Sequence record: LR746311
Reading direction: 5' to 3' (one strand)
DNA: 64,000 nucleotides
Origin: Shigella phage vB_SsoM_113
This document shows, one piece after another, positions 588 to 55,277 of the stretch. Both the position numbers and the translations under genes were made by a program. Every line of letters starts with the position of its first letter. Within the stretch, counting starts at the first letter, position 1. A model generated the notes under the pieces. The model saw only the letters and a program-made list of their open reading frames with translations. It was not told the origin of the DNA and did no database searches.

Positions 588-677
588 GGAGGCGTGGCAG
601 AGTGGTTTAATGCACCGGTCTTGAAAACCGGCAGTCGCTCCGGCGACTCATAGGTTCAAATCCTATCGCCTCCGCCA
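588..677 (+). tRNA. tRNA-Ser (anticodon UGA), class II, encoded CCA
   Basis: Acceptor GGAGGCG/CGCCTCC; anticodon stem CCGGT/ACCGG with loop CTTGAAA; long variable arm; T-arm TAGG-TTCAAAT-CCTA; 3' GCCA. Confidence 0.85.
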
Positions 678-682
678 GTTTT

Positions 683-758
683 GCTGATTTAGCTCAGTAG
701 GTAGAGCAACTCACTTGTAATGAGAAGGTCGGCGGTTCGATTCCGTCAATCAGCACCA
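683..758 (+). tRNA. tRNA-Thr (anticodon UGU), encoded CCA
   Basis: Acceptor GCTGATT/AATCAGC; D-arm GCTC-AGTAGGTA-GAGC; anticodon loop CTTGTAA; T-loop TTCGATT; 3' ACCA. Confidence 0.85.
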
Positions 759-759
759 A

Positions 760-834
760 GGCCCTGTAGCTGGAAGGTTCAAGCAAGCGACTCATAATCG
801 CCAGATGGTGGTTCAATTCCACCCAGGGCCACCA
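760..834 (+). tRNA. tRNA with CAU anticodon (Ile2-type if lysidine-modified, otherwise Met), encoded CCA
   Basis: Acceptor GGCCCTG/CAGGGCC; anticodon loop CTCATAA; T-arm GGTGG-TTCAATT-CCACC; T4 carries a CAU-type tRNA-Ile at the equivalent position (recalled). Confidence 0.75.
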
Positions 835-843
835 AATTAATTT

Positions 844-930
844 GGGGAGTTATCCCGTAGAGGTAGCGGTGTGGACTGTAAATCCATTGTCATTGCGACT
901 CGGGTGGTTCGACTCCATCACTCCCCACCA
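844..930 (+). tRNA. tRNA-Tyr (anticodon GUA), class II, encoded CCA
   Basis: Acceptor GGGGAGT/ACTCCCC; anticodon stem TGGA/TCCA with loop CTGTAAA; long variable arm; T-loop TTCGACT. Confidence 0.75.
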
Positions 931-934
931 ATTT

Positions 935-1009
935 GGATGTGTAGCTCAATGGCAGAGCGATCGCCTGTTAAGCGATTGGTTATAGGTTCGAATCCTATCA
1001 CGTCCGCCA
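935..1009 (+). tRNA. tRNA-Asn (anticodon GUU), encoded CCA
   Basis: Acceptor GGATGTG/CACGTCC; anticodon stem ATCGC/GCGAT with loop CTGTTAA; T-arm TAGG-TTCGAAT-CCTA. Confidence 0.8.
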
Positions 1010-1013
1010 AATC

Positions 1014-1089
1014 CGAGGCATAGCTCAGAAGGAAGAGCAAGGACCTTCTAAGTCCTAGGTCGTAGGTTCGATCCCTACTGCCTCGACCA
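1014..1089 (+). tRNA. tRNA-Arg (anticodon UCU), encoded CCA
   Basis: Acceptor CGAGGCA/TGCCTCG; anticodon stem GGAC/GTCC with loop CTTCTAA; T-arm GTAGG-TTCGATC-CCTAC. Confidence 0.85.
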
Positions 1090-2444: not shown

Positions 2445-3008
2445 ATGAAAACCTATGCCGAATTTTTAACCGAAGCAGCAAAATTACCATCTGAAGCAGA
2501 TCTTACTAAAGTATTCTTCCACTTGGACCCAAAAGACCGCGGCGATTTTCTTAAGTGGAAAGCTAAAGCTATTGAAATGTACAACATCGATAATAGTTCT
2601 TTTACAATGAGTCAAGAAAATAAATTCAATAAAGCATTTTTCAAAATTTCTAAGAAATTGGCATCTGGCGCTCAGGTTCCTAAATCTGTATTAGCTACTC
2701 CTGAACGTGCACCTGTTAAAATTTCTAAGAATATGTTCGACACTAAAAAATACGTTAATGCTTTGAATAAAGCTCTTGATGCATTGGATGATGCAAAGAA
2801 GGCAGCCCGCGATCTTCAAGACGTGTACACCGATTTTGACCGCAAAACTAAAGGTTCTATTTCAAATAGCGAACGCAATAGTGTAAGTGTTTATTCTGAT
2901 AGCCTTGATGTTCTTGGCGATGCGTATACTGAAATTAAAAATCGTATTAACACTGCATCTAAGCTAAAAGCTGCTGCAGAAGCTATAATAACTAAACTAG
3001 GTAAATAA
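2445..3008 (+). CDS. internal head protein-like (capsid targeting sequence at N-terminus)
   Basis: N-terminus MKTYAEFLTEAAKLP; basic and Lys-rich; terminator hairpin follows. Confidence 0.7.
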   Translation: MKTYAEFLTEAAKLPSEADLTKVFFHLDPKDRGDFLKWKAKAIEMYNIDNSSFTMSQENKFNKAFFKISKKLASGAQVPKSVLATPERAPVKISKNMFDTKKYVNALNKALDALDDAKKAARDLQDVYTDFDRKTKGSISNSERNSVSVYSDSLDVLGDAYTEIKNRINTASKLKAAAEAIITKLGK

Positions 3009-3016
3009 TTTTAAAT

Positions 3017-3041
3017 CCCTATCTAAATGATAGGGCTTTTT
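3017..3041 (+). terminator. rho-independent terminator
   Basis: CCCTATC-TAAAT-GATAGGG followed by CTTTTT. Confidence 0.6.
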
Positions 3042-3164
3042 GGTATTTAGGCCTTTCTGGACCTCTCTAGGCATCATTTAGTTTATACCCTTTATAATAT
3101 ATTATCCTATCCTTTAATTGCCCATCCCTGCCCTAGAATTCCCTAAAAATTTTTTCACAAAACT

Positions 3165-3194
3165 GTTTACATCTCTGTTCTTCCATGGTACTAT
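3165..3194 (+). promoter_or_regulatory. T4-type early promoter (GTTTAC ... TGGTACTAT)
   Basis: A/T-rich upstream TTTTTCACAAAA, -35 GTTTAC, 18-bp spacer, extended -10 TGGTACTAT; part of a cassette repeated elsewhere. Confidence 0.7.
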
Positions 3195-3237
3195 ACAACT
3201 ATCAACTACTGATATAGAAAACAACTTGGAGAATGAA

Positions 3238-3501
3238 ATGGATAATTACGGCGAACTGTTCAACTTCTTTATGAAATGCGTTTCAGAAGATTTCGGTCGT
3301 ACAGTGAATGATATTAAAGTTATCGGTCCTGATCATCCGATGTTTGAAACTTACGCAGTAATGGGTAATGAAGACGGTCAGTGGTATACTGTAAAAGTTG
3401 TGATTAATATGTTCACAGCAGAAGGTTATGTTAAACTGTCTTCTAAAGTTTACCACGATAACGACGAAATCGCAGAAGAATATTTCAATAATATGAAATA
3501 A
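3238..3501 (+). CDS. hypothetical protein (87 aa)
   Basis: ATG at 3238 with GGAG 6 nt upstream; the track ORF from 3118 would run through its own promoter. Confidence 0.6.
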   Translation: MDNYGELFNFFMKCVSEDFGRTVNDIKVIGPDHPMFETYAVMGNEDGQWYTVKVVINMFTAEGYVKLSSKVYHDNDEIAEEYFNNMK

Positions 3502-3502
3502 G

Positions 3503-3531
3503 TTTACACAGGCTCATGATTGAGATATTAT
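3503..3531 (+). promoter_or_regulatory. T4-type early promoter with flanking 10-bp dyad
   Basis: GTTTAC at 3503-3508, -10 TATTAT; perfect inverted repeat ACAGGCTCAT / ATGAGCCTGT at 3508-3517 and 3530-3539. Confidence 0.6.
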
Positions 3532-3556
3532 GAGCCTGTAACTTGAGGAGAACATT

Positions 3557-3892
3557 ATGAAACGTAACTTTAGTAAAGCTTTTTGTAATCGAAATTATTA
3601 TCCCGAAGAGCTTTTTGAATCTAAGGAATTTAAAGAGTTTAACGAACGCTCTCAAAACATGCCTGTACAGTGGGTATTGGATTATGCTAACCGTATCTTT
3701 GAAGGTGTACGTTTCGTTGGCCCTGATGATGAAGCTCCTTATTTTAAAAAGGCTTGGGAACTTGCTAACCAAGCATATATCAATGCTTTAGAATCTTCTA
3801 AAGGCACTGACGATGATTTTACTTTATTGGCTATCAATGATGCCGTTATCGAGGCCATTGACGTCTTTATCGATGAGATAGACGAAGAATAA
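3557..3892 (+). CDS. hypothetical acidic protein (111 aa)
   Basis: ORF track; SD GAGGAG upstream; promoter upstream. Confidence 0.65.
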   Translation: MKRNFSKAFCNRNYYPEELFESKEFKEFNERSQNMPVQWVLDYANRIFEGVRFVGPDDEAPYFKKAWELANQAYINALESSKGTDDDFTLLAINDAVIEAIDVFIDEIDEE

Positions 3893-6388: not shown

Positions 6389-6825
6389 AAACATTATCAG
6401 CTGGTATTATCTTTATGACAGAAGATAAAGATTTATTTATGGGACGAGTTACCGGTTCTCGTAAACCTGGAATGATGGCACATCGCTGGGATATTCCAAA
6501 GGGGCGTGTAGAAAGTTCTGATTTGAATGCACTGGAAGCTGCAAAAAGAGAATGCTCAGAAGAGACTGGTTTTATCGATTATAATCCAGACCTTCTAGAA
6601 GACTTAGGTGTATTTAAATATTCTAGTAATAAAGACTTACAGTTATTTTATTATACGATTCCAGTAGAGCATGAGATGTTTAGAAATTGCCATTGCGAGT
6701 CTTATTTTGAAAATAAAGATGGCGTTATGATTCCAGAGATGGATGCTTTTGCTCTTATTCCTCGTACTCAGTGGCAATATGTGATGGGTCCTTCACTTTA
6801 CCGAATAATGAACAACCTCTTTTAA
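6385..6825 (+). CDS. nudE: Nudix hydrolase
   Basis: Nudix box GRVESSDLNALEAAKRECSEETGF; immediately upstream of e, as T4 nudE (e.1). Confidence 0.75.
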   Translation: MKTLSAGIIFMTEDKDLFMGRVTGSRKPGMMAHRWDIPKGRVESSDLNALEAAKRECSEETGFIDYNPDLLEDLGVFKYSSNKDLQLFYYTIPVEHEMFRNCHCESYFENKDGVMIPEMDAFALIPRTQWQYVMGPSLYRIMNNLF

Positions 6826-14138: not shown

Positions 14139-14162
14139 AGTCTCCTTCGGGAGACTTTTTTC
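14139..14162 (+). terminator. rho-independent terminator
   Basis: AGTCTCC-TTCG-GGAGACT followed by TTTTTT. Confidence 0.75.
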
Positions 14163-14171
14163 ATTTTACCG

Positions 14172-14201
14172 GTTTACTTTCAATTTGAGCTGTGATACTA
14201 T
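14172..14201 (+). promoter_or_regulatory. T4-type early promoter
   Basis: GTTTAC, 18-bp spacer, TGATACTAT. Confidence 0.65.
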
Positions 14202-14229
14202 ACAACCATCGGATAAAGAGGAGAACAAC

Positions 14230-14418
14230 ATGAAAATTGAAGCACTCAATCAAGAAGGAAATATCTACGTCATCATTAATGGTGATTTTTTCGTCGACAT
14301 GGATGAAGTTACTAGTGAAGAACTTGTAGAACTTCTTAAGAAACGTTATGATATGTGTGATGAAGCTGCAACTCATATGGCGTGTGCAATATTCTCTCTT
14401 TCATATGTGGTGGAATAA
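14230..14418 (+). CDS. small helical protein (62 aa), member of tandem small-ORF array
   Basis: ATG at 14230 with GAGGAG upstream. Confidence 0.55.
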
Positions 14419-16873: not shown

Positions 16874-17883
16874 TGAAAACAGTAATGAAAAGCTATTTTG
16901 GTAGTCATCTTTATGGAACTTCTACTCCAGAATCTGATGTAGATTTTAAAGAAATCTTTGTTCCTCCTGCTCGCGATATTCTTATCGGAAATGTTAAAGA
17001 GCATATGAGTAAAAACACTAACAACACATCATCTAAAAACACTAAAGATGATATTGACCATGAACTATATAGTCTTAAGTATTTCTTTAAATTAGCTGCA
17101 GATGGTGAAACTGTAGCATTGGATATGCTCCACACTCCACCGGAACTAGTGGTTAAATCTGATTTGCCTGATGTATGGAAGTTTATTCAAGACAATCGTT
17201 CTCGTTTTTATACGACTAACATGAAATCCTATTTAGGATATGTTCGCAAGCAAGCTTCTAAATACGGTGTTAAGGGTTCTCGTTTGGCCGCATTACGTGA
17301 TGTATTGAAAGTAGTTAATCAAATCCCTGAGCAATGGGTTGATTACCAAGAAGACGGTTCCATTAAGCAGCGTCGAACTAAAGTTGAAGATATTAAGCAT
17401 CGTCTTCCAGAGAACGAATTCTGTGAATGGGTATTCCATAATCATGAGAAAACAGGCCCACAAACGTTCTACACCGTGTTGGGTCGTAAATATCAAACAA
17501 TGCTTTCTCTTATCGAGCTTAAGCAATCTTTGAATAAACTTGATGCTGAATACGGCGAACGCGCTCGTAAGGCCGAAGCTAATGAGGGCATTGACTGGAA
17601 AGCTCTGAGTCATGCTTGCCGTGGTGGACTCCAACTATTGGAAATTTACAAAACTGGTGACTTAGTCTATCCACTTCAAGATGCTCCATTTATTCTCGAC
17701 GTGAAGTTGGGTAAACATCCATTTAAAACTGTTCAAGAGTTTTTGGAAGATGTGGTCGATCAAGTAGAAGCAGCATCCATTGAAGCTTCTAAGAACGGTA
17801 TGCAGCAAAAAGTAGACATGGGTTTCTGGGATGACTTCCTTGAGAGGGTTTATCTTGAAAACCACCGAAGTTATTATAAATGA
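16870..17883 (+). CDS. Pol-beta superfamily nucleotidyltransferase-like protein (337 aa)
   Basis: N-terminal YFGSHLYGTSTPESDVDF fits the GS-x10-DxD nucleotidyltransferase signature; about 230-aa helical C-terminal extension. Confidence 0.65.
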   Translation: MMKTVMKSYFGSHLYGTSTPESDVDFKEIFVPPARDILIGNVKEHMSKNTNNTSSKNTKDDIDHELYSLKYFFKLAADGETVALDMLHTPPELVVKSDLPDVWKFIQDNRSRFYTTNMKSYLGYVRKQASKYGVKGSRLAALRDVLKVVNQIPEQWVDYQEDGSIKQRRTKVEDIKHRLPENEFCEWVFHNHEKTGPQTFYTVLGRKYQTMLSLIELKQSLNKLDAEYGERARKAEANEGIDWKALSHACRGGLQLLEIYKTGDLVYPLQDAPFILDVKLGKHPFKTVQEFLEDVVDQVEAASIEASKNGMQQKVDMGFWDDFLERVYLENHRSYYK

Positions 17884-17885
17884 TA

Positions 17886-17909
17886 GGGAGCCTTCGGGCT
17901 CCCTTTTTT
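17886..17909 (+). terminator. rho-independent terminator
   Basis: GGGAGCC-TTCG-GGCTCCC followed by TTTTTT. Confidence 0.8.
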
Positions 17910-17933
17910 ATTTCAAAATTTTTTCACAAAACG

Positions 17934-17963
17934 GTTTACAAGCATAAAGCTTTATGGTACTAT
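17934..17963 (+). promoter_or_regulatory. T4-type early promoter (repeated cassette)
   Basis: TTTTTTCACAAAACGGTTTACA ... TGGTACTATACAACTATCAACT, near-identical to cassettes at 3151 and 45311. Confidence 0.7.
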
Positions 17964-18476: not shown

Positions 18477-19445
18477 ATGAAAACTGTAACTATCAATAAG
18501 GGTATCTACTTCGGTAAAGAAATCTCTGGAACTTTTGAGCTCTTAGGCGAATGGTTCCCAGATAATGCTCCGGTAGATGCACAAGGAGATGGTAAAGTTT
18601 TTGTTGAAATTGACGGTAAACGTCGCGGTGTTTGGGTTTACAAATCAGATATTTCATATGATGGTGTAAAAGTTGAAGAAGTTAAAGAATCGTATGAAGA
18701 TATGAAAACCCGCATTAATAAAAGATTTAATGTTATGGGAATGATGACGAATGGTATTATTAATGGAAATATTCGTTCATTGATTATCTCTGGTGCAGCA
18801 GGTATTGGTAAAACGTATTCTTTAGATAAAGCTTTGAATAAAGCAAATGATATTGGATACATTGAATATAAAAGCATTAATGGTAAAATCTCTGGTATTG
18901 GTCTTTATGAGCAGCTTTGGAATAATCGTGAAGAGAATTCTGTCCTTTTGATTGATGATGTGGATGTTTTCTCTGATATGGATATTCTTAATCTTCTAAA
19001 AGCCGCTCTGGACACTGGAGAGACCCGTAAAGTCTGCTGGAGCACTGCGTCTTCTTACTTAGAAGAAAAAGGCATTGAGCGTGAGTTTGAATTTAAAGGA
19101 ACGATTGTTTTTATCACAAACGTTGACATTGACCGCGAATTAGACCGTGGTACTAAACTTGCTCCACATTTACAAGCATTAGTGTCCCGCTCGGTTTATT
19201 TAGATTTGGGTGTTCACACTAATGAAGAAATTATGGTCAGGGTTGAAGATGTTATTCTTTCAACTGACATGATGCAAAAGCGCGGTCTTTCTGATGAAGA
19301 AACTTATAAAGCATTATCATGGATGAAAGTTAATGTTAATCGTTTACGCAATGTTTCACTGCGTACTGCTCTTTATCTTGCTGACTTTATTATGACCGAC
19401 AAAAACGGTTGGGAAGAAATCGCTGAGGTTACTCTTCTGAAATAA
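18477..19445 (+). CDS. AAA+/P-loop ATPase (322 aa)
   Basis: Walker A GAAGIGKT, Walker B LLIDDVD, sensor-like FITNVD; ATG at 18477 with GGAG upstream. Confidence 0.7.
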   Translation: MKTVTINKGIYFGKEISGTFELLGEWFPDNAPVDAQGDGKVFVEIDGKRRGVWVYKSDISYDGVKVEEVKESYEDMKTRINKRFNVMGMMTNGIINGNIRSLIISGAAGIGKTYSLDKALNKANDIGYIEYKSINGKISGIGLYEQLWNNREENSVLLIDDVDVFSDMDILNLLKAALDTGETRKVCWSTASSYLEEKGIEREFEFKGTIVFITNVDIDRELDRGTKLAPHLQALVSRSVYLDLGVHTNEEIMVRVEDVILSTDMMQKRGLSDEETYKALSWMKVNVNRLRNVSLRTALYLADFIMTDKNGWEEIAEVTLLK

Positions 19446-19546
19446 TTCATAAGAGGACTTCTATGACAAAAAGGCAGTTCAGAAATAGATTATATGGACT
19501 GCCATTAAAAAGATGACTAGAATTAAACTGGTGAATGGAGGTAGTG

Positions 19547-19849
19547 ATGTTATACTCAAAGGCTCGTGAAATTTACGAAACTAAAATTAAAGAAGCAGTA
19601 TTTCAGTTCGCAACGACAATGCGATGGACAAATGACTGGGAGTATTCAAAAAATCATAAGAAGCCCATGGTGACAAGAAAGGCTCATATGTTAGTGTTAA
19701 TAGACCGTGAGCAGATTAAAGCCCGAGAAGCCCTCCAGAATCATAAAAAGGCTGCCTTTGAATGGTTTATGGATAACACTGCTCCTGAGACCAAGAAAGC
19801 GGTAAGTGCATGGTTCAGTGGAAAAAATTGTGAAAGAAGTTTCTTTTAG
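19547..19849 (+). CDS. hypothetical protein (100 aa)
   Basis: ATG at 19547 after GGAGG; track ORF starts at 19535. Confidence 0.5.
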   Translation: MLYSKAREIYETKIKEAVFQFATTMRWTNDWEYSKNHKKPMVTRKAHMLVLIDREQIKAREALQNHKKAAFEWFMDNTAPETKKAVSAWFSGKNCERSFF

Positions 19850-51985: not shown

Positions 51986-52279
51986 ATGAAAAAATTTATC
52001 TTTGCTGCAATTTTTGCTTTATCTTCTTGCGCTGCTCAGCCTGCTATGGCGGGTTATGACAAAGATTTGTGCGAATGGTCTATGACTGCAGATCAGACTG
52101 AAGTTGAAATTCAAATTGAAGCGGATATTATGAATATCGTTGAACGTGATCGTCCTGAAATGAAAGCTGAAGTGCAAAAACAACTTAAATCTGGTGGTGT
52201 AATGCAGTATAATTATGTTCTGTATTGCGATAAAAACTTTAATAATAAAAATATCATCGCTGAAGTGGTAGGTGAGTAA
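51986..52279 (+). CDS. sp: Spackle-like periplasmic protein
   Basis: 97 aa with signal peptide MKKFIFAAIFALSSCAAQPAMA; position matches T4 sp (61.3). Confidence 0.7.
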   Translation: MKKFIFAAIFALSSCAAQPAMAGYDKDLCEWSMTADQTEVEIQIEADIMNIVERDRPEMKAEVQKQLKSGGVMQYNYVLYCDKNFNNKNIIAEVVGE

Positions 52280-52291
52280 TTAGAGGTTAGT

Positions 52292-52648
52292 ATGTATAGT
52301 TCTGAATTTTCATATTTAAAAATGGAAAAAATTTCATACGATTTTATAGATGAAAAGGTTTATTACAGCTTCCATGAACCACGTTTTAATAGTGAGGTTG
52401 GGTTTATTATAGTAAAAGACAATTTCATTTTAAAAATATATTCGGCATTAAAGGATTTTCACTACGAAAATATTAACCTAAAATTTGATAAAGAAAACGT
52501 TCGTAATTGCGCAGTAACAATTACAGGAAATAAAGGTACATGCGTTATGCTATCTGATGAAATTAATGATTTGTTAAATGATGTAGAAAAAGTTGCTATT
52601 CCATCGATTGATGACCAAATTTTTAATGCTTTTATGAATAGAGGTTAA
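52292..52648 (+). CDS. hypothetical protein (118 aa), T4 61.2 position
   Basis: ORF track; SD GAGG upstream. Confidence 0.55.
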   Translation: MYSSEFSYLKMEKISYDFIDEKVYYSFHEPRFNSEVGFIIVKDNFILKIYSALKDFHYENINLKFDKENVRNCAVTITGNKGTCVMLSDEINDLLNDVEKVAIPSIDDQIFNAFMNRG

Positions 52649-52816: not shown

Positions 52817-53845
52817 ATGTCATCAATACCTTGGATTGATAATGAGTTTGCATACCGTGCATTGGCTCATTTACCTAAATTCGCACAAGTAAATAATAGT
52901 TCAACTTTTAAATTACGGTTTAGATGTCCTGTTTGTGGAGATTCAAAAACCGACCAAAATAAAGCCCGTGGATGGTATTATGGTGATAATAATGAAGGAA
53001 ATATTCACTGTTATAACTGTAACTATCATGCACCAATCGGAATATATTTAAAGGAGTTTGAACCTGATTTATATCGTGAGTATATCTTTGAAATAAGAAA
53101 AGAAAAAGGTAAAAGTCGTCCAGTAGAAAAACCTAAAGAACTTCCTAAACAACCTGAGAAGAAAATAATTAAATCTCTTCCGTCATGCATTAGATTAGAT
53201 AAACTGGCGGAAGACCATCCAATTATAAAATATGTAAAAGCTCGTTGTATTCCAAAGGATAAATGGAAATATCTTTGGTTTACAACCGAATGGCCTAAAT
53301 TAGTTAATAGTATAGCGCCAGGAACATATAAAAAGGAAATACCTGAGCCTCGTCTTGTTATTCCAATTTATAATGCTAACGGAAAAGCTGAGTCTTTTCA
53401 AGGACGTGCATTAAAGAAAGATGCTCCTCAAAAATATATCACCATCAAAGCTTATCCTGAGGCAACAAAAATTTATGGAGTCGAACGAGTCAAAGATGGT
53501 GATGTATATGTTCTAGAAGGACCTATAGATTCACTTTTTATTGAAAATGGTATAGCTATTACGGGTGGTCAATTAGACCTAGAAATTGTTCCATTTAAAG
53601 ATAGACGTGTGTGGGTTTTAGATAATGAACCTCGTCACCCTGACACTATTAAACGAATGACTAAATTGGTTGATGCAGGAGAAAGGGTTATGTTTTGGGA
53701 TAAATCTCCCTGGAAATCAAAAGATGTTAATGATATGATTAGAAAGGAAGGTGCAACCCCTAAACAAATTATGGAATATATGAAAAATAATATTGCCCAA
53801 GGGTTGATGGCTAAAATGCGGCTATCTAAATATGCTAAGATTTAA
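52817..53845 (+). CDS. 61: DNA primase gp61
   Basis: 342 aa; N-terminal Zn-ribbon CPVCGDSK...CYNCNYH and TOPRIM region. Confidence 0.93.
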   Translation: MSSIPWIDNEFAYRALAHLPKFAQVNNSSTFKLRFRCPVCGDSKTDQNKARGWYYGDNNEGNIHCYNCNYHAPIGIYLKEFEPDLYREYIFEIRKEKGKSRPVEKPKELPKQPEKKIIKSLPSCIRLDKLAEDHPIIKYVKARCIPKDKWKYLWFTTEWPKLVNSIAPGTYKKEIPEPRLVIPIYNANGKAESFQGRALKKDAPQKYITIKAYPEATKIYGVERVKDGDVYVLEGPIDSLFIENGIAITGGQLDLEIVPFKDRRVWVLDNEPRHPDTIKRMTKLVDAGERVMFWDKSPWKSKDVNDMIRKEGATPKQIMEYMKNNIAQGLMAKMRLSKYAKI

Positions 53846-54042
53846 ATTAACCCAACTAAAGCAAATGCTAAATCTACGAATGTATCAAGAGTAATTACTG
53901 GAATATTAACGCCATGAGCAATAGCAATTGGCGATAAAACAAAATTCCAGAGTAAAATTCCTACCATAGCAGAAATAGTAAAAGCTATACGTTTTTTATT
54001 ACCTTTTATGGCATTAACAAGTGCCATTAATTTTTGTACCAT
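53842..54042 (-). CDS. small hydrophobic membrane protein (66 aa) on the opposite strand
   Basis: Only non-overlapped minus-strand ORF in the window; SD AAGGAGG 4 nt upstream of ATG; two predicted TM helices. Confidence 0.5.
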   Translation of the reverse strand: MVQKLMALVNAIKGNKKRIAFTISAMVGILLWNFVLSPIAIAHGVNIPVITLDTFVDLAFALVGLI

Positions 54043-54055
54043 ATGTCCTCCTTAT

Positions 54056-54079
54056 TGCTTTATATATTTATTGTATAAT
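54056..54079 (+). promoter_or_regulatory. candidate MotA-dependent middle promoter for gene 56
   Basis: MotA box TGCTTTA, 11-bp gap, TATAAT. Confidence 0.5.
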
Positions 54080-54113
54080 TAATCTACTAACCCATGAATT
54101 GAAAGGAAAAATA

Positions 54114-54632
54114 ATGGCTTACTTTAATGAATGTAGTCAACTGATTGAAGGCGCTGATAAAGCTCAAAATGAATACTGGGATATTCTCGGCGATGAAAAA
54201 GACCCGCTGCAGGTTATGCTTGATATGCAGAAATCTCTGCAGGTTCGTTTAGCTAAAGATAAACCTGAATATAACCGTCATCCTGATGATTTGGCTACTG
54301 CAGGTGAAGTTGTTGATTGGCTGCGTAATCAGAAAGATTATATTGATGATGAATTCCGCGAACTTCTGACTTCTCTTGGTGGTATGAGCAATGGCGAAAA
54401 AGATGCATCTGCTGTATGGAAGCCTTGGAAGTCGCAACACGGTGAACGTCGTGAAACTCTGATTACTGATTTGTCTCCACAAGACCAGTTGGAAATTAAA
54501 TTCGAAATGATTGATATTCTTCATTTCGTTCTGAACATGTTCCAAGGCCTCGGTCTTACGGCTGAAGAAATCTTTAAACTTTATTATCTGAAAAATGCTG
54601 AAAACTTCGCTCGTCAAGACCGAGGTTATTAA
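54114..54632 (+). CDS. 56: dCTPase/dUTPase gp56
   Basis: 172 aa from ATG 54114 with SD AAAGGAAAA; MAYFNECSQLIEGADKAQNEYWDILG matches recalled T4 gp56. Confidence 0.9.
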   Translation: MAYFNECSQLIEGADKAQNEYWDILGDEKDPLQVMLDMQKSLQVRLAKDKPEYNRHPDDLATAGEVVDWLRNQKDYIDDEFRELLTSLGGMSNGEKDASAVWKPWKSQHGERRETLITDLSPQDQLEIKFEMIDILHFVLNMFQGLGLTAEEIFKLYYLKNAENFARQDRGY

Positions 54633-55001: not shown

Positions 55002-55009
55002 TATAAATA
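55002..55009 (+). promoter_or_regulatory. late promoter box TATAAATA upstream of soc
   Basis: Exact TATAAATA about 30 nt upstream of soc. Confidence 0.65.
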
Positions 55010-55040: not shown

Positions 55041-55277
55041 ATGGGTGGTTTCGTTAACATCAAGACCTTTACTCATCCAGCGGGTGAAGGCAAAGAAGTT
55101 AAAGGTATGGAAGTTTCTGTTCCGTTTGAAATTTATTCTAACGAGCATCGTATCGCAGATTCTCATTATCAAATCTTTCCGTCAGAAAAAGCAGCTTATT
55201 CTGATGTAGTTTCCGATGCAGCAACTTGGAAAACTAAGAATACTGCAATGTTTACGCCTACAGAAATAGGTGGTTAA
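55041..55277 (+). CDS. soc: small outer capsid protein Soc
   Basis: 78 aa; MGGFVNIKTFTHPAGEGKEVKGMEVSVPFEIYSNEHRIAD closely resembles recalled RB69-type Soc. Confidence 0.88.
   Translation: MGGFVNIKTFTHPAGEGKEVKGMEVSVPFEIYSNEHRIADSHYQIFPSEKAAYSDVVSDAATWKTKNTAMFTPTEIGG

Follow-up and report, generated by a model that had tools for sequence, protein, structure and literature searches.

Phage T4 encodes several small envelope proteins, including RI, Imm, Sp, and holin T, that are found at the inner membrane or in the periplasm. Holin T and RI have a cytoplasmic N-terminus and a single membrane segment; RI, an antiholin, consists of a SAR anchor and a periplasmic domain, and Imm and Sp act in superinfection exclusion. 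Here, we analyzed a stretch of 64,000 nucleotides from Shigella phage vB_SsoM_113 (sequence record LR746311; the whole stretch is referred to as the window) and focused on a 66-codon open reading frame (ORF) on its minus strand, located between the DNA primase gene 61 and the dCTPase/dUTPase gene 56. Our results make it highly probable that this ORF is a real, late-expressed gene for a small inner-membrane protein. The proposed product is similar to RI, Imm, Sp, and T in size and location, and the topology that we propose for it is that of T and RI. However, no homology to any of these four proteins was detected, Imm and Sp are encoded by early genes of the opposite strand, and the periplasmic part of the product would be only ~24 residues long, as compared with ~70 residues in RI and ~160 in T.

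In its genetic arrangement, the ORF can be compared with soc, a T4 late gene for the small outer capsid protein that lies in the early region ~1 kb away. Both genes are short, have a strong Shine-Dalgarno (SD) sequence, and look like dispensable accessory genes near gene 56. Moreover, soc (ATG at 55041) has a TATAAATA-type late-promoter box at 55002-55009, about 20-30 nucleotides upstream of its start codon, an arrangement like that of the ORF. The two differ in that soc is on the early-gene strand and encodes a soluble capsid decoration protein, whereas the ORF is on the opposite strand, has a box with A at -13, and encodes a predicted membrane protein; they share no sequence similarity. Type I toxin-like and other small hydrophobic membrane toxins also resemble the ORF product in size, hydrophobicity, and overlap with transcription of the other strand. 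In contrast to these toxins, the ORF belongs to a strictly lytic phage, has a dedicated late-type promoter, and encodes a protein with a conserved W-N/P/G/P pattern, and no dedicated antisense RNA gene is evident at its locus.

A conserved coding sequence on the minus strand

The window is a segment of a Tequatrovirus (T4-like) genome; its positions 53700-54250 match Escherichia phage ECp13 at 100% identity and hundreds of further T-even-type phages at 97-99%. A first-pass annotation of the same DNA had described an ORF for 66 amino acids, with an AAGGAGG sequence at a 4-nucleotide spacing and a 3' end abutting the stop codon of the primase gene, and all of these features were confirmed (Table 1); the start codon is ATG. 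There is no alternative upstream start, since just 3 open codons precede the ATG (six-frame segment 53845-54051). The 4-nucleotide TTAA overlap of the two stop codons is also found at the T4, Mosigvirus, Gaprivervirus, Dhakavirus, Kanagawavirus, Marfavirus, Moonvirus, and Gelderlandvirus loci. Within the 64 kb, no other minus-strand ORF with 40 or more codons combines a strong SD with an ATG; the one further candidate has a weak SD (AAGGA). Its earlier description as the only minus-strand ORF not contained in a plus-strand gene is thus true in substance, as it is the sole credible gene on the minus strand of the window.

We compared the six reading frames of the region in nine distinct Tequatrovirus alleles. 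Summed over their 36 pairs, the ratio of nonsynonymous to synonymous differences per site (pN/pS) was lowest in the ORF frame (0.18) and ranged from 0.30 to 1.8 in the remaining five frames. The ORF frame was also the only one of the six that was free of stop codons in all alleles. Between genera, where DNA identity is ~57%, pS is saturated (0.66-0.79) with a pN of 0.32-0.35, and the protein is retained. A tblastn search with the protein matched 692 phage records (~500 at 90% identity or more, ~190 at 48-56%), and in 686 of these the match covered at least 80% of the protein with the frame intact. The next-lowest pN/pS was found in the plus-strand frame that runs on past the primase stop (53846-54042), which is open for ~200 nucleotides in T4. 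In the window, this plus frame is interrupted by a TGA at 53915-53917, which results from a GCA to GCT change at Ala42 that is synonymous in the ORF; therefore, selection acts on the minus frame and not on the plus frame. A read-through extension of the primase past its stop was rejected because of this TGA and the higher pN/pS. By these comparisons of aligned alleles and genera, the ORF is a genuine protein-coding gene under purifying selection.

Distribution of the family and its database status

To find relatives, the primase gene was traced into other genera and the opposite-strand ORF at its 3' end was read. Convergent homologues of 61-69 amino acids abut gene 61 in Tequatro-, Mosig-, Gapriver-, Dhaka-, Kanagawa-, Marfa-, Moon-, and Gelderlandvirus, and a large group of Klebsiella phages likewise carries a positional homologue abutting gene 61. 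Convergence with gene 61 held in all genera in which a homologue was found, giving a family of about ten genera. The conservation check across T-even relatives that the first-pass annotation had called for thus supports a real gene, with its frame kept under purifying selection throughout these genera. No homologue was present beside gene 61 in one Karamvirus and one Krischvirus, for each of which one locus was examined. The gene is accessory, as it is not universal among T4-like phages and is confined to phages of Enterobacterales. Gaprivervirus VR25 (1495-1901 of its locus) carries two diverged tandem copies, of 65 and 66 amino acids and 8 nucleotides apart, one like the T4 type and the other like the Dhakavirus type, with a late-promoter box at the first copy only. 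In TH40 (locus 1495-1810), a Gaprivervirus relative of VR25, the second copy is mostly lost.

The window protein matched PHROG 2024, a family of "unknown function", with an E-value of 5.4e-31 (residues 2-66 on profile positions 1-65 of 65). All five diverse members that were tested matched the same profile, with E-values of 4e-15 to 5e-31 (4e-15 to 3e-27 in the other genera). Annotated members bear the names RB69ORF029w, RB32ORF030w, and VR7ORF033w, and the RB51 record cites the RB69 homologue; given the end-to-end profile match, the window protein belongs to the same family. None of the database sources for PHROG 2024 proteins attaches a function, expression class, or topology to them, and a literature search on the ORF names found no paper.

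An exhaustive hidden Markov model (HMM) search of 1.84 billion representatives gave 7 matches, all of them the same family or fragments of it except for one 1255-residue match (E 3e-4) that we judged spurious. An 11-member alignment, searched as a profile against 5.8 billion proteins, gave 88 matches, all of 33-74 amino acids (56-74 when full-length) and mostly on contigs of the size of T4-like phages. Matches from both searches lacked Pfam domains and credible names; the occasional labels "DNA packaging ATPase", "dCTP pyrophosphatase", and "Holin" among the 88 were treated as mislabels. An IMG/VR scan found only 7 loci.

The gene is already known as a sequence feature, being a "hypothetical protein" in hundreds of records as well as a PHROG, and the closest match to the window is among these records. 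Deposited entries identical in sequence to the window protein exist (e.g., AEK12294.1). In T4, the ORF is found at 17738..17938 (+), and T2 carries it too. However, it is unannotated in NC_000866, AF158101, and KJ477684 (T4) and in the T2 RefSeq record, and no protein database entry contains the exact T4 protein sequence, which occurs solely in raw assemblies. T4 is the reference of this phage group, yet the T4 and T2 records that we checked omit a gene that about a thousand of their relatives keep under purifying selection. Its presence in T4 and T2, the late-promoter box shared by the family, the span of about ten genera with a tandem duplication, and the nesting of the box in the gene 56 promoter (see below) appear to be unrecorded. 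In practical terms, these observations allow the T4 and T2 annotations to be corrected and define a clear target for a knockout; they do not by themselves constitute a new mechanism.

A late-promoter box upstream of the gene

At every first-in-line copy of the gene, a box of NATAAATA or ATTAAATA is located 12-22 nucleotides upstream of the ATG, in flanks that are otherwise unrelated. An SD-like GGAGG, GGAGA, or GGAGGT is present at the same place in 16/16 family members. The T4 late-promoter consensus is TATAAATA at -13 to -6; of the 50 sites listed, 32 match it perfectly and nine carry A at -13, which is the commonest variant among the listed T4 late promoters, and a TA to AT variant has been noted as well (PMC2988020). 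Furthermore, early and middle transcripts of T4 all have one polarity, and late transcripts alone use either (PMC2988020). The box upstream of the ORF is of the TATAAATA type and is placed at -13 to -6, and late promoters require no -35 element. Since the ORF combines a late-type box with the polarity that only late transcripts use, its expression is almost certainly late and gp55-dependent. No other gene in this 64-kb block of early genes lies on the strand that late transcripts alone use.

The motif ATAAATA occurs 12 times in the window (9 copies on the plus strand, 3 on the minus strand) as compared with 40.3 ± 6.4 expected, an approximately three-fold depletion. Only the copy at 54065-54071 is followed by an SD and an ATG on the minus strand; the other minus-strand copies, at 6434 and 8891, have neither SD nor ATG after them and were discarded. 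The box of soc, which includes the ATAAATA copy at 55003-55009 (+), provided an internal positive control. As an aside, the depletion of ATAAATA is consistent with selection against stray late promoters.

We infer that late transcription starts near 54059 on the minus strand, which would give a leader of ~17 nucleotides. In the mechanism that we propose, RNA polymerase with gp55 and gp33, activated by the gp45 sliding clamp, would start at this position, and the short-leader late mRNA would be translated efficiently.

Nesting of the late box in the predicted gene 56 promoter

As the first-pass annotation had proposed, the 5' region of the ORF adjoins a predicted middle-type promoter of gene 56, for which we found the pattern TGCTTTA/11 nucleotides/TATAAT. 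This pattern has 19 matches in the window as compared with 6.4 ± 2.6 expected, an approximately three-fold enrichment, and the gene 56 promoter of the window can be aligned by eye with the corresponding upstream sequence of T4. A distance of 3 nucleotides separates the SD of the ORF from the MotA-box-like element, and the late box lies wholly within the 11-nucleotide spacer. The late box is just outside the MotA-like box in Mosigvirus and overlaps it in Gaprivervirus, and in T4, it is about 0.9 kb from the gene 56 promoter, with dam between them. The distance of the box to the ATG of the ORF is constant across lineages, whereas its position relative to the gene 56 promoter varies. Because of this constant distance, we assign the late box to the ORF and not to gene 56.

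The overlap of the promoters is specific to phages without dam; in T4 and T2, dam (plus other genes) separates the ORF from gene 56. In dam-less phages, the two promoters should be occupied in a mutually exclusive manner, as the late box is located within the gene 56 spacer, and this would give a simple temporal hand-over. If so, the locus would be a clean example of a late promoter nested in a middle promoter on the other strand. The claim of the first-pass annotation that sense and antisense expression would collide here is not supported, as the two promoters are back to back and point in opposite directions, with the late start at ~54059 leading leftwards and the gene 56 promoter leading rightwards from ~54086; what they share is recognition space. 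The sole convergent transcription is early/middle read-through from gene 61, which would be separated in time from transcription of the ORF because the latter has a late promoter.

The window lacks a dam methyltransferase gene, and in it the slot between the ORF and gene 56 (54043-54113) carries no insertion. The same slot contains dam in T4 (locus 2787-3738 compared), dam plus a 181-residue ORF in T2, a homing endonuclease in Yersinia phage fPS-2, and a mazG-like gene or small ORFs in Kanagawa-, Marfa-, and Moonvirus. By this comparison of loci, the space is an insertion hot spot bounded by the start of the ORF and the gene 56 promoter, which explains why the upstream sequences differ completely between lineages.

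A terminator scan also found a hairpin of the early strand inside the first codons of the ORF (Table 1; folding energy -10.3 kcal/mol, z-score -2.15), at whose position Yersinia phage fPS-2 annotates a terminator. At this position, it would terminate gene 61 transcripts shortly upstream of the gene 56 promoter. The hairpin is found only in Tequatrovirus and is not conserved in Mosigvirus or Gaprivervirus; the idea that the region is conserved for an early-strand terminator was rejected on these grounds.

Predicted architecture of the protein

The first 18 residues of the protein are basic, with a net charge of +5 in the window protein and of +1 to +6 across homologues. Two hydrophobic stretches follow in the window protein, residues 19-42 and 45-66 (Kyte-Doolittle 1.8 and 1.85). 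Residues 19-42 are hydrophobic in 16/16 homologues (Kyte-Doolittle 1.3-2.4), each of which has a net-positive N-terminus. The tail after G44 has a hydropathy of 1.85 in the window protein, which has D53 and D57 there, and of 0.6-1.6 with E/H/K/R in most other genera. The two hydrophobic helices of the first-pass annotation are thus a fair description of the window sequence but not of the family, in which the second is not a conserved membrane span; a second or re-entrant helix in the tail is possible in the window's subfamily. A hydrophobic membrane product with a strong ribosome-binding site, also claimed there, is borne out by hydropathy and by AAGGAGG. An AlphaFold2 model built on a shallow alignment (mean predicted local distance difference test score (pLDDT) 73) has helices at residues 2-13, 16-42 (pLDDT about 78-81), and 52-63. 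From these features, we infer that members of the family have a cytoplasmic N-terminus, a single membrane span, and a short tail on the periplasmic side.

In an alignment of 16 sequences, W32, N33, P38, G44, P48, and G64 are invariant, A40 is near-invariant, and the position of D53 is acidic in 15/16 members. Within membrane helices, invariant Asn residues are classic sites of contact between helices. Because N33 lies within the predicted membrane helix, a partner protein or self-association would be the likeliest mode of action, and the clustering of conserved residues in the outer half of the helix and the juxtamembrane stretch suggests that such contact takes place at the periplasmic leaflet. 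According to the mechanism that we propose, the product would insert in the inner membrane with its basic N-terminus in the cytoplasm, through a single conserved helix with a Trp-Asn pair and a Pro kink and with a tail of ~24 residues at or in the periplasmic face. It would then contact another membrane protein, or itself, at the periplasmic leaflet and serve an accessory envelope role late in infection.

Possible roles and alternative explanations

Searches for related proteins of known function gave little guidance. Pfam and NCBIfam scans of four diverse members found no family, and no holin family even at E ≤ 10, and a PADLOC scan of the same number of diverse members found no defence family at E ≤ 1. 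In a profile search of the six-frame ORFs of the window, including sp (51986-52279), only the ORF itself matched. The single sequence-profile match in the PDB, to the NqrE membrane subunit (E 0.06), was rejected as compositional. Antiholins and anti-defence families likewise showed no similarity to the protein in these searches. With the AlphaFold2 model as query, a structure search of the PDB gave zero matches, and one of BFVD gave only the family itself and two weak matches to phage proteins of 63 amino acids. The membrane toxin, superinfection-exclusion factor, and lysis modulator that the first-pass annotation had suggested remain guesses, as there is no homology to such families and the charged C-terminal tail of holins is absent. 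A tentative proposal, which we regard as the best guess and still hold with limited confidence, is an envelope role late in infection, in lysis timing, lysis inhibition, or the handling of superinfection. We favor it because the gene is almost certainly late, its product is probably abundant and located in the membrane, and it is an accessory gene found only in phages of Enterobacterales. If expression as a late membrane protein is correct, the gene would be an unstudied addition to the T-even envelope proteins that control lysis, lysis inhibition, and superinfection.

Several alternatives to a late membrane protein were considered. That the ORF is a chance, untranslated frame in a conserved non-coding spacer, made up of the gene 61 3' untranslated region or terminator and the gene 56 promoter, would agree with the terminator-like early-strand hairpin in its first codons and with the curated T4 and T2 reference records, which do not annotate it. 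However, the comparative data (pN/pS, conservation in 692 records, the alignment, and the PHROG matches) effectively refute this explanation, to which we assign a negligible probability; the hairpin is confined to Tequatrovirus, and an Rfam scan of the region, with zero matches, also counts against it. It is very improbable, too, that the late transcript is mainly an antisense RNA, running into the antisense of gene 61 and of early read-through RNA for a late shut-down, with the peptide secondary. The overlapping stops with zero intergenic space, the convergence with gene 61 kept in all genera examined, and the lack of an intrinsic terminator on the minus strand for at least 3.3 kb downstream would all fit such a role. 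Nonetheless, it leaves unexplained the purifying selection on amino acids, the conservation of SD and ATG, the residues that remain invariant at 57% DNA identity, and the two diverged tandem protein copies in Gaprivervirus, and untranslated RNA past the stop would probably be ended by Rho. The late RNA may thus have a Rho-dependent end or extend antisense into gene 61, which leaves room for a secondary antisense effect; antisense action could be an added effect and not the sole function.

Other alternatives accept the protein and differ in its fate or activity. Residues 1-42 could be a long cleavable signal peptide that signal peptidase I cuts after A-I-A (40-42), so that a peptide of ~24 residues, HGVNIPVITLDTFVDLAFALVGLI, is released at the periplasmic face late in infection. 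In line with this, 16/16 members have Pro at -5, Ala/Leu at -3, and Ala/Ser/Thr at -1 before [HQNY]-Gly together with a positive N-region, a pattern that fits signal peptidase I (residues 42/43 in the window protein), and the most conserved residues cluster around the putative cleavage point. We nevertheless consider cleavage unlikely. The core of 17-19 residues and the pre-sequence of 38-47 residues exceed the usual lengths in E. coli signal peptides and are more in keeping with an anchor that stays uncleaved, and the invariant W32-N33 lie in the hydrophobic core, whereas signal peptides do not normally keep invariant residues. In addition, one paralogue type has an Asp inside the core, and the residue at -1 is Thr, a poor signal-peptidase residue, in 5/16 members. 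An extension of this idea is improbable: a precursor cut between P-x-A-x-A and [HQNY]-G would release the ~24-residue peptide as a periplasmic or extracellular cue (e.g., for lysis inhibition or interaction between infected cells), and the late mRNA may also silence primase. If true, such a released cue would represent a type of factor that has not been described in T-even phages. We find it similarly hard to credit that the protein is a holin, a pinholin, or a membrane-depolarising toxin, even though it is small, hydrophobic, probably late, and probably strongly translated, has the acidic D53 and D57 (i, i+4) in the second hydrophobic stretch of the window's subfamily, and has a 63-residue homologue that one UniProt entry names "Holin". 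That name is a single submitter name among hundreds of "hypothetical" entries, the scans described above found no holin family, and other members do not retain the second hydrophobic stretch as a membrane span. Moreover, the protein ends in hydrophobic residues (…AFALVGLI) and has its basic cluster at the N-terminus, with no charged hydrophilic tail, and T4-type phages already possess holin T, antiholin RI, and spanins. Because the holin features that we looked for (a family match and a charged C-terminal domain) were not found, a holin or toxin is less likely than the late envelope role.

Some observations weigh against a late-expressed membrane protein with an envelope role. The G at -13 of the T4 and T2 box, GATAAATA, is a rarer deviation from the consensus than A. 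The transcript has an undefined 3' end, given the missing terminator, and the topology is derived solely from hydropathy together with the positive-inside rule. Nothing links the protein to a particular process: searches of Pfam, NCBIfam, PADLOC, and the PDB found no relative, and the neighbours are replication and nucleotide genes, not lysis genes. A literature search for transcript, ribosome-footprint, or peptide evidence on the ORF returned none; it found no T4 ribosome profiling (Ribo-seq) study, and the transposon and CRISPR interference (CRISPRi) papers contained nothing on the locus. A T4 differential RNA sequencing (dRNA-seq) study reports 22 antisense start sites.

Feature coordinates and other observations in the window

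The features of the locus are listed in Table 1, along with the late boxes of the family and a promoter-box substitution proposed for T4.

Table 1. Features of the ORF locus in the window, and late-promoter boxes of the family
Feature	Coordinates	Strand	Details	Basis
66-amino-acid protein coding sequence	53842..54042	-	ATG start; TAA stop codon 53842-53844; PHROG 2024 member	ORF list
Shine-Dalgarno AAGGAGG	54047..54053	-	4-nucleotide spacer (ACAT) to ATG	Reverse complement read
Late-promoter box AATAAATA, putative	54065..54072	-	A at -13; ATAAATA at 54065-54071	Consensus TATAAATA
Conserved transmembrane helix, predicted, codons 19-42	53917..53988	-	W32-N33 53944-53949; P38 53929-53931; near-invariant A40	
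Juxtamembrane loop and C-terminal tail, predicted, codons 43-66	53845..53916	-	G44, P48, G64 invariant; acidic D53	
TTAA palindrome, overlapping stops of ORF (-) and primase gene 61 (+)	53842..53845	.	ORF stop 53842-53844; primase stop 53843-53845; zero intergenic space	
Terminator-like hairpin	54008..54037	+	ATGGCATT/AGTGCCAT then TAATTTTTGT (T-run); inside ORF codons 2-12	Terminator scan
Middle-type promoter of gene 56, predicted	54056..54079	+	MotA-box-like TGCTTTA 54056-54062; 11 nucleotides; TATAAT 54074-54079	Pattern search, perfect match
Gene 61 (DNA primase)	52817..53845	+	Convergent neighbour	ORF list and homology
Gene 56 (dCTPase/dUTPase)	54114..54632	+	Divergent neighbour; ATG at 54114	ORF list
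Box in window and Mosigvirus			AATAAATA	
Box in T4 and T2			GATAAATA (G at -13)	
Box in Gaprivervirus, Kanagawavirus (KLB31, Entb_45), Klebsiella group			CATAAATA	
Box in Dhakavirus			TATAAATA, perfect consensus	
Box in Moon- and Gelderlandvirus			ATTAAATA	
Promoter-box substitution proposed for T4			GATAAATA to GACAGATA	

Other minus-strand ORFs in apparent gaps between plus-strand genes were rejected, as they have GTG or TTG starts or are antisense to tRNA genes (694-822). The minus-strand ORF 14161..14376 (71 amino acids), which overlaps the small plus-strand ORF 14185..14418 and has no PHROG match and no SD, is probably spurious. Counted from its internal ATG at 14230, the plus-strand ORF 14185-14418 encodes 62 amino acids and fills an apparent gap in the plus-strand gene map.

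Six consecutive tRNA genes are present at 588-1089 (+), for Ser-TGA, Thr-TGT, Met-CAT, Tyr-GTA, Asn-GTT, and Arg-TCT. T4 has a different set, of eight tRNAs (Gln, Leu, Gly, Pro, Ser, Thr, Ile, and Arg). At the position of T4 gene 61.2, the window has an ORF of 118 amino acids (52292-52648, +), as compared with 208 amino acids in T4 (19132..19758), and the RB51 record labels the short form of this ORF "similar to gp61.2".

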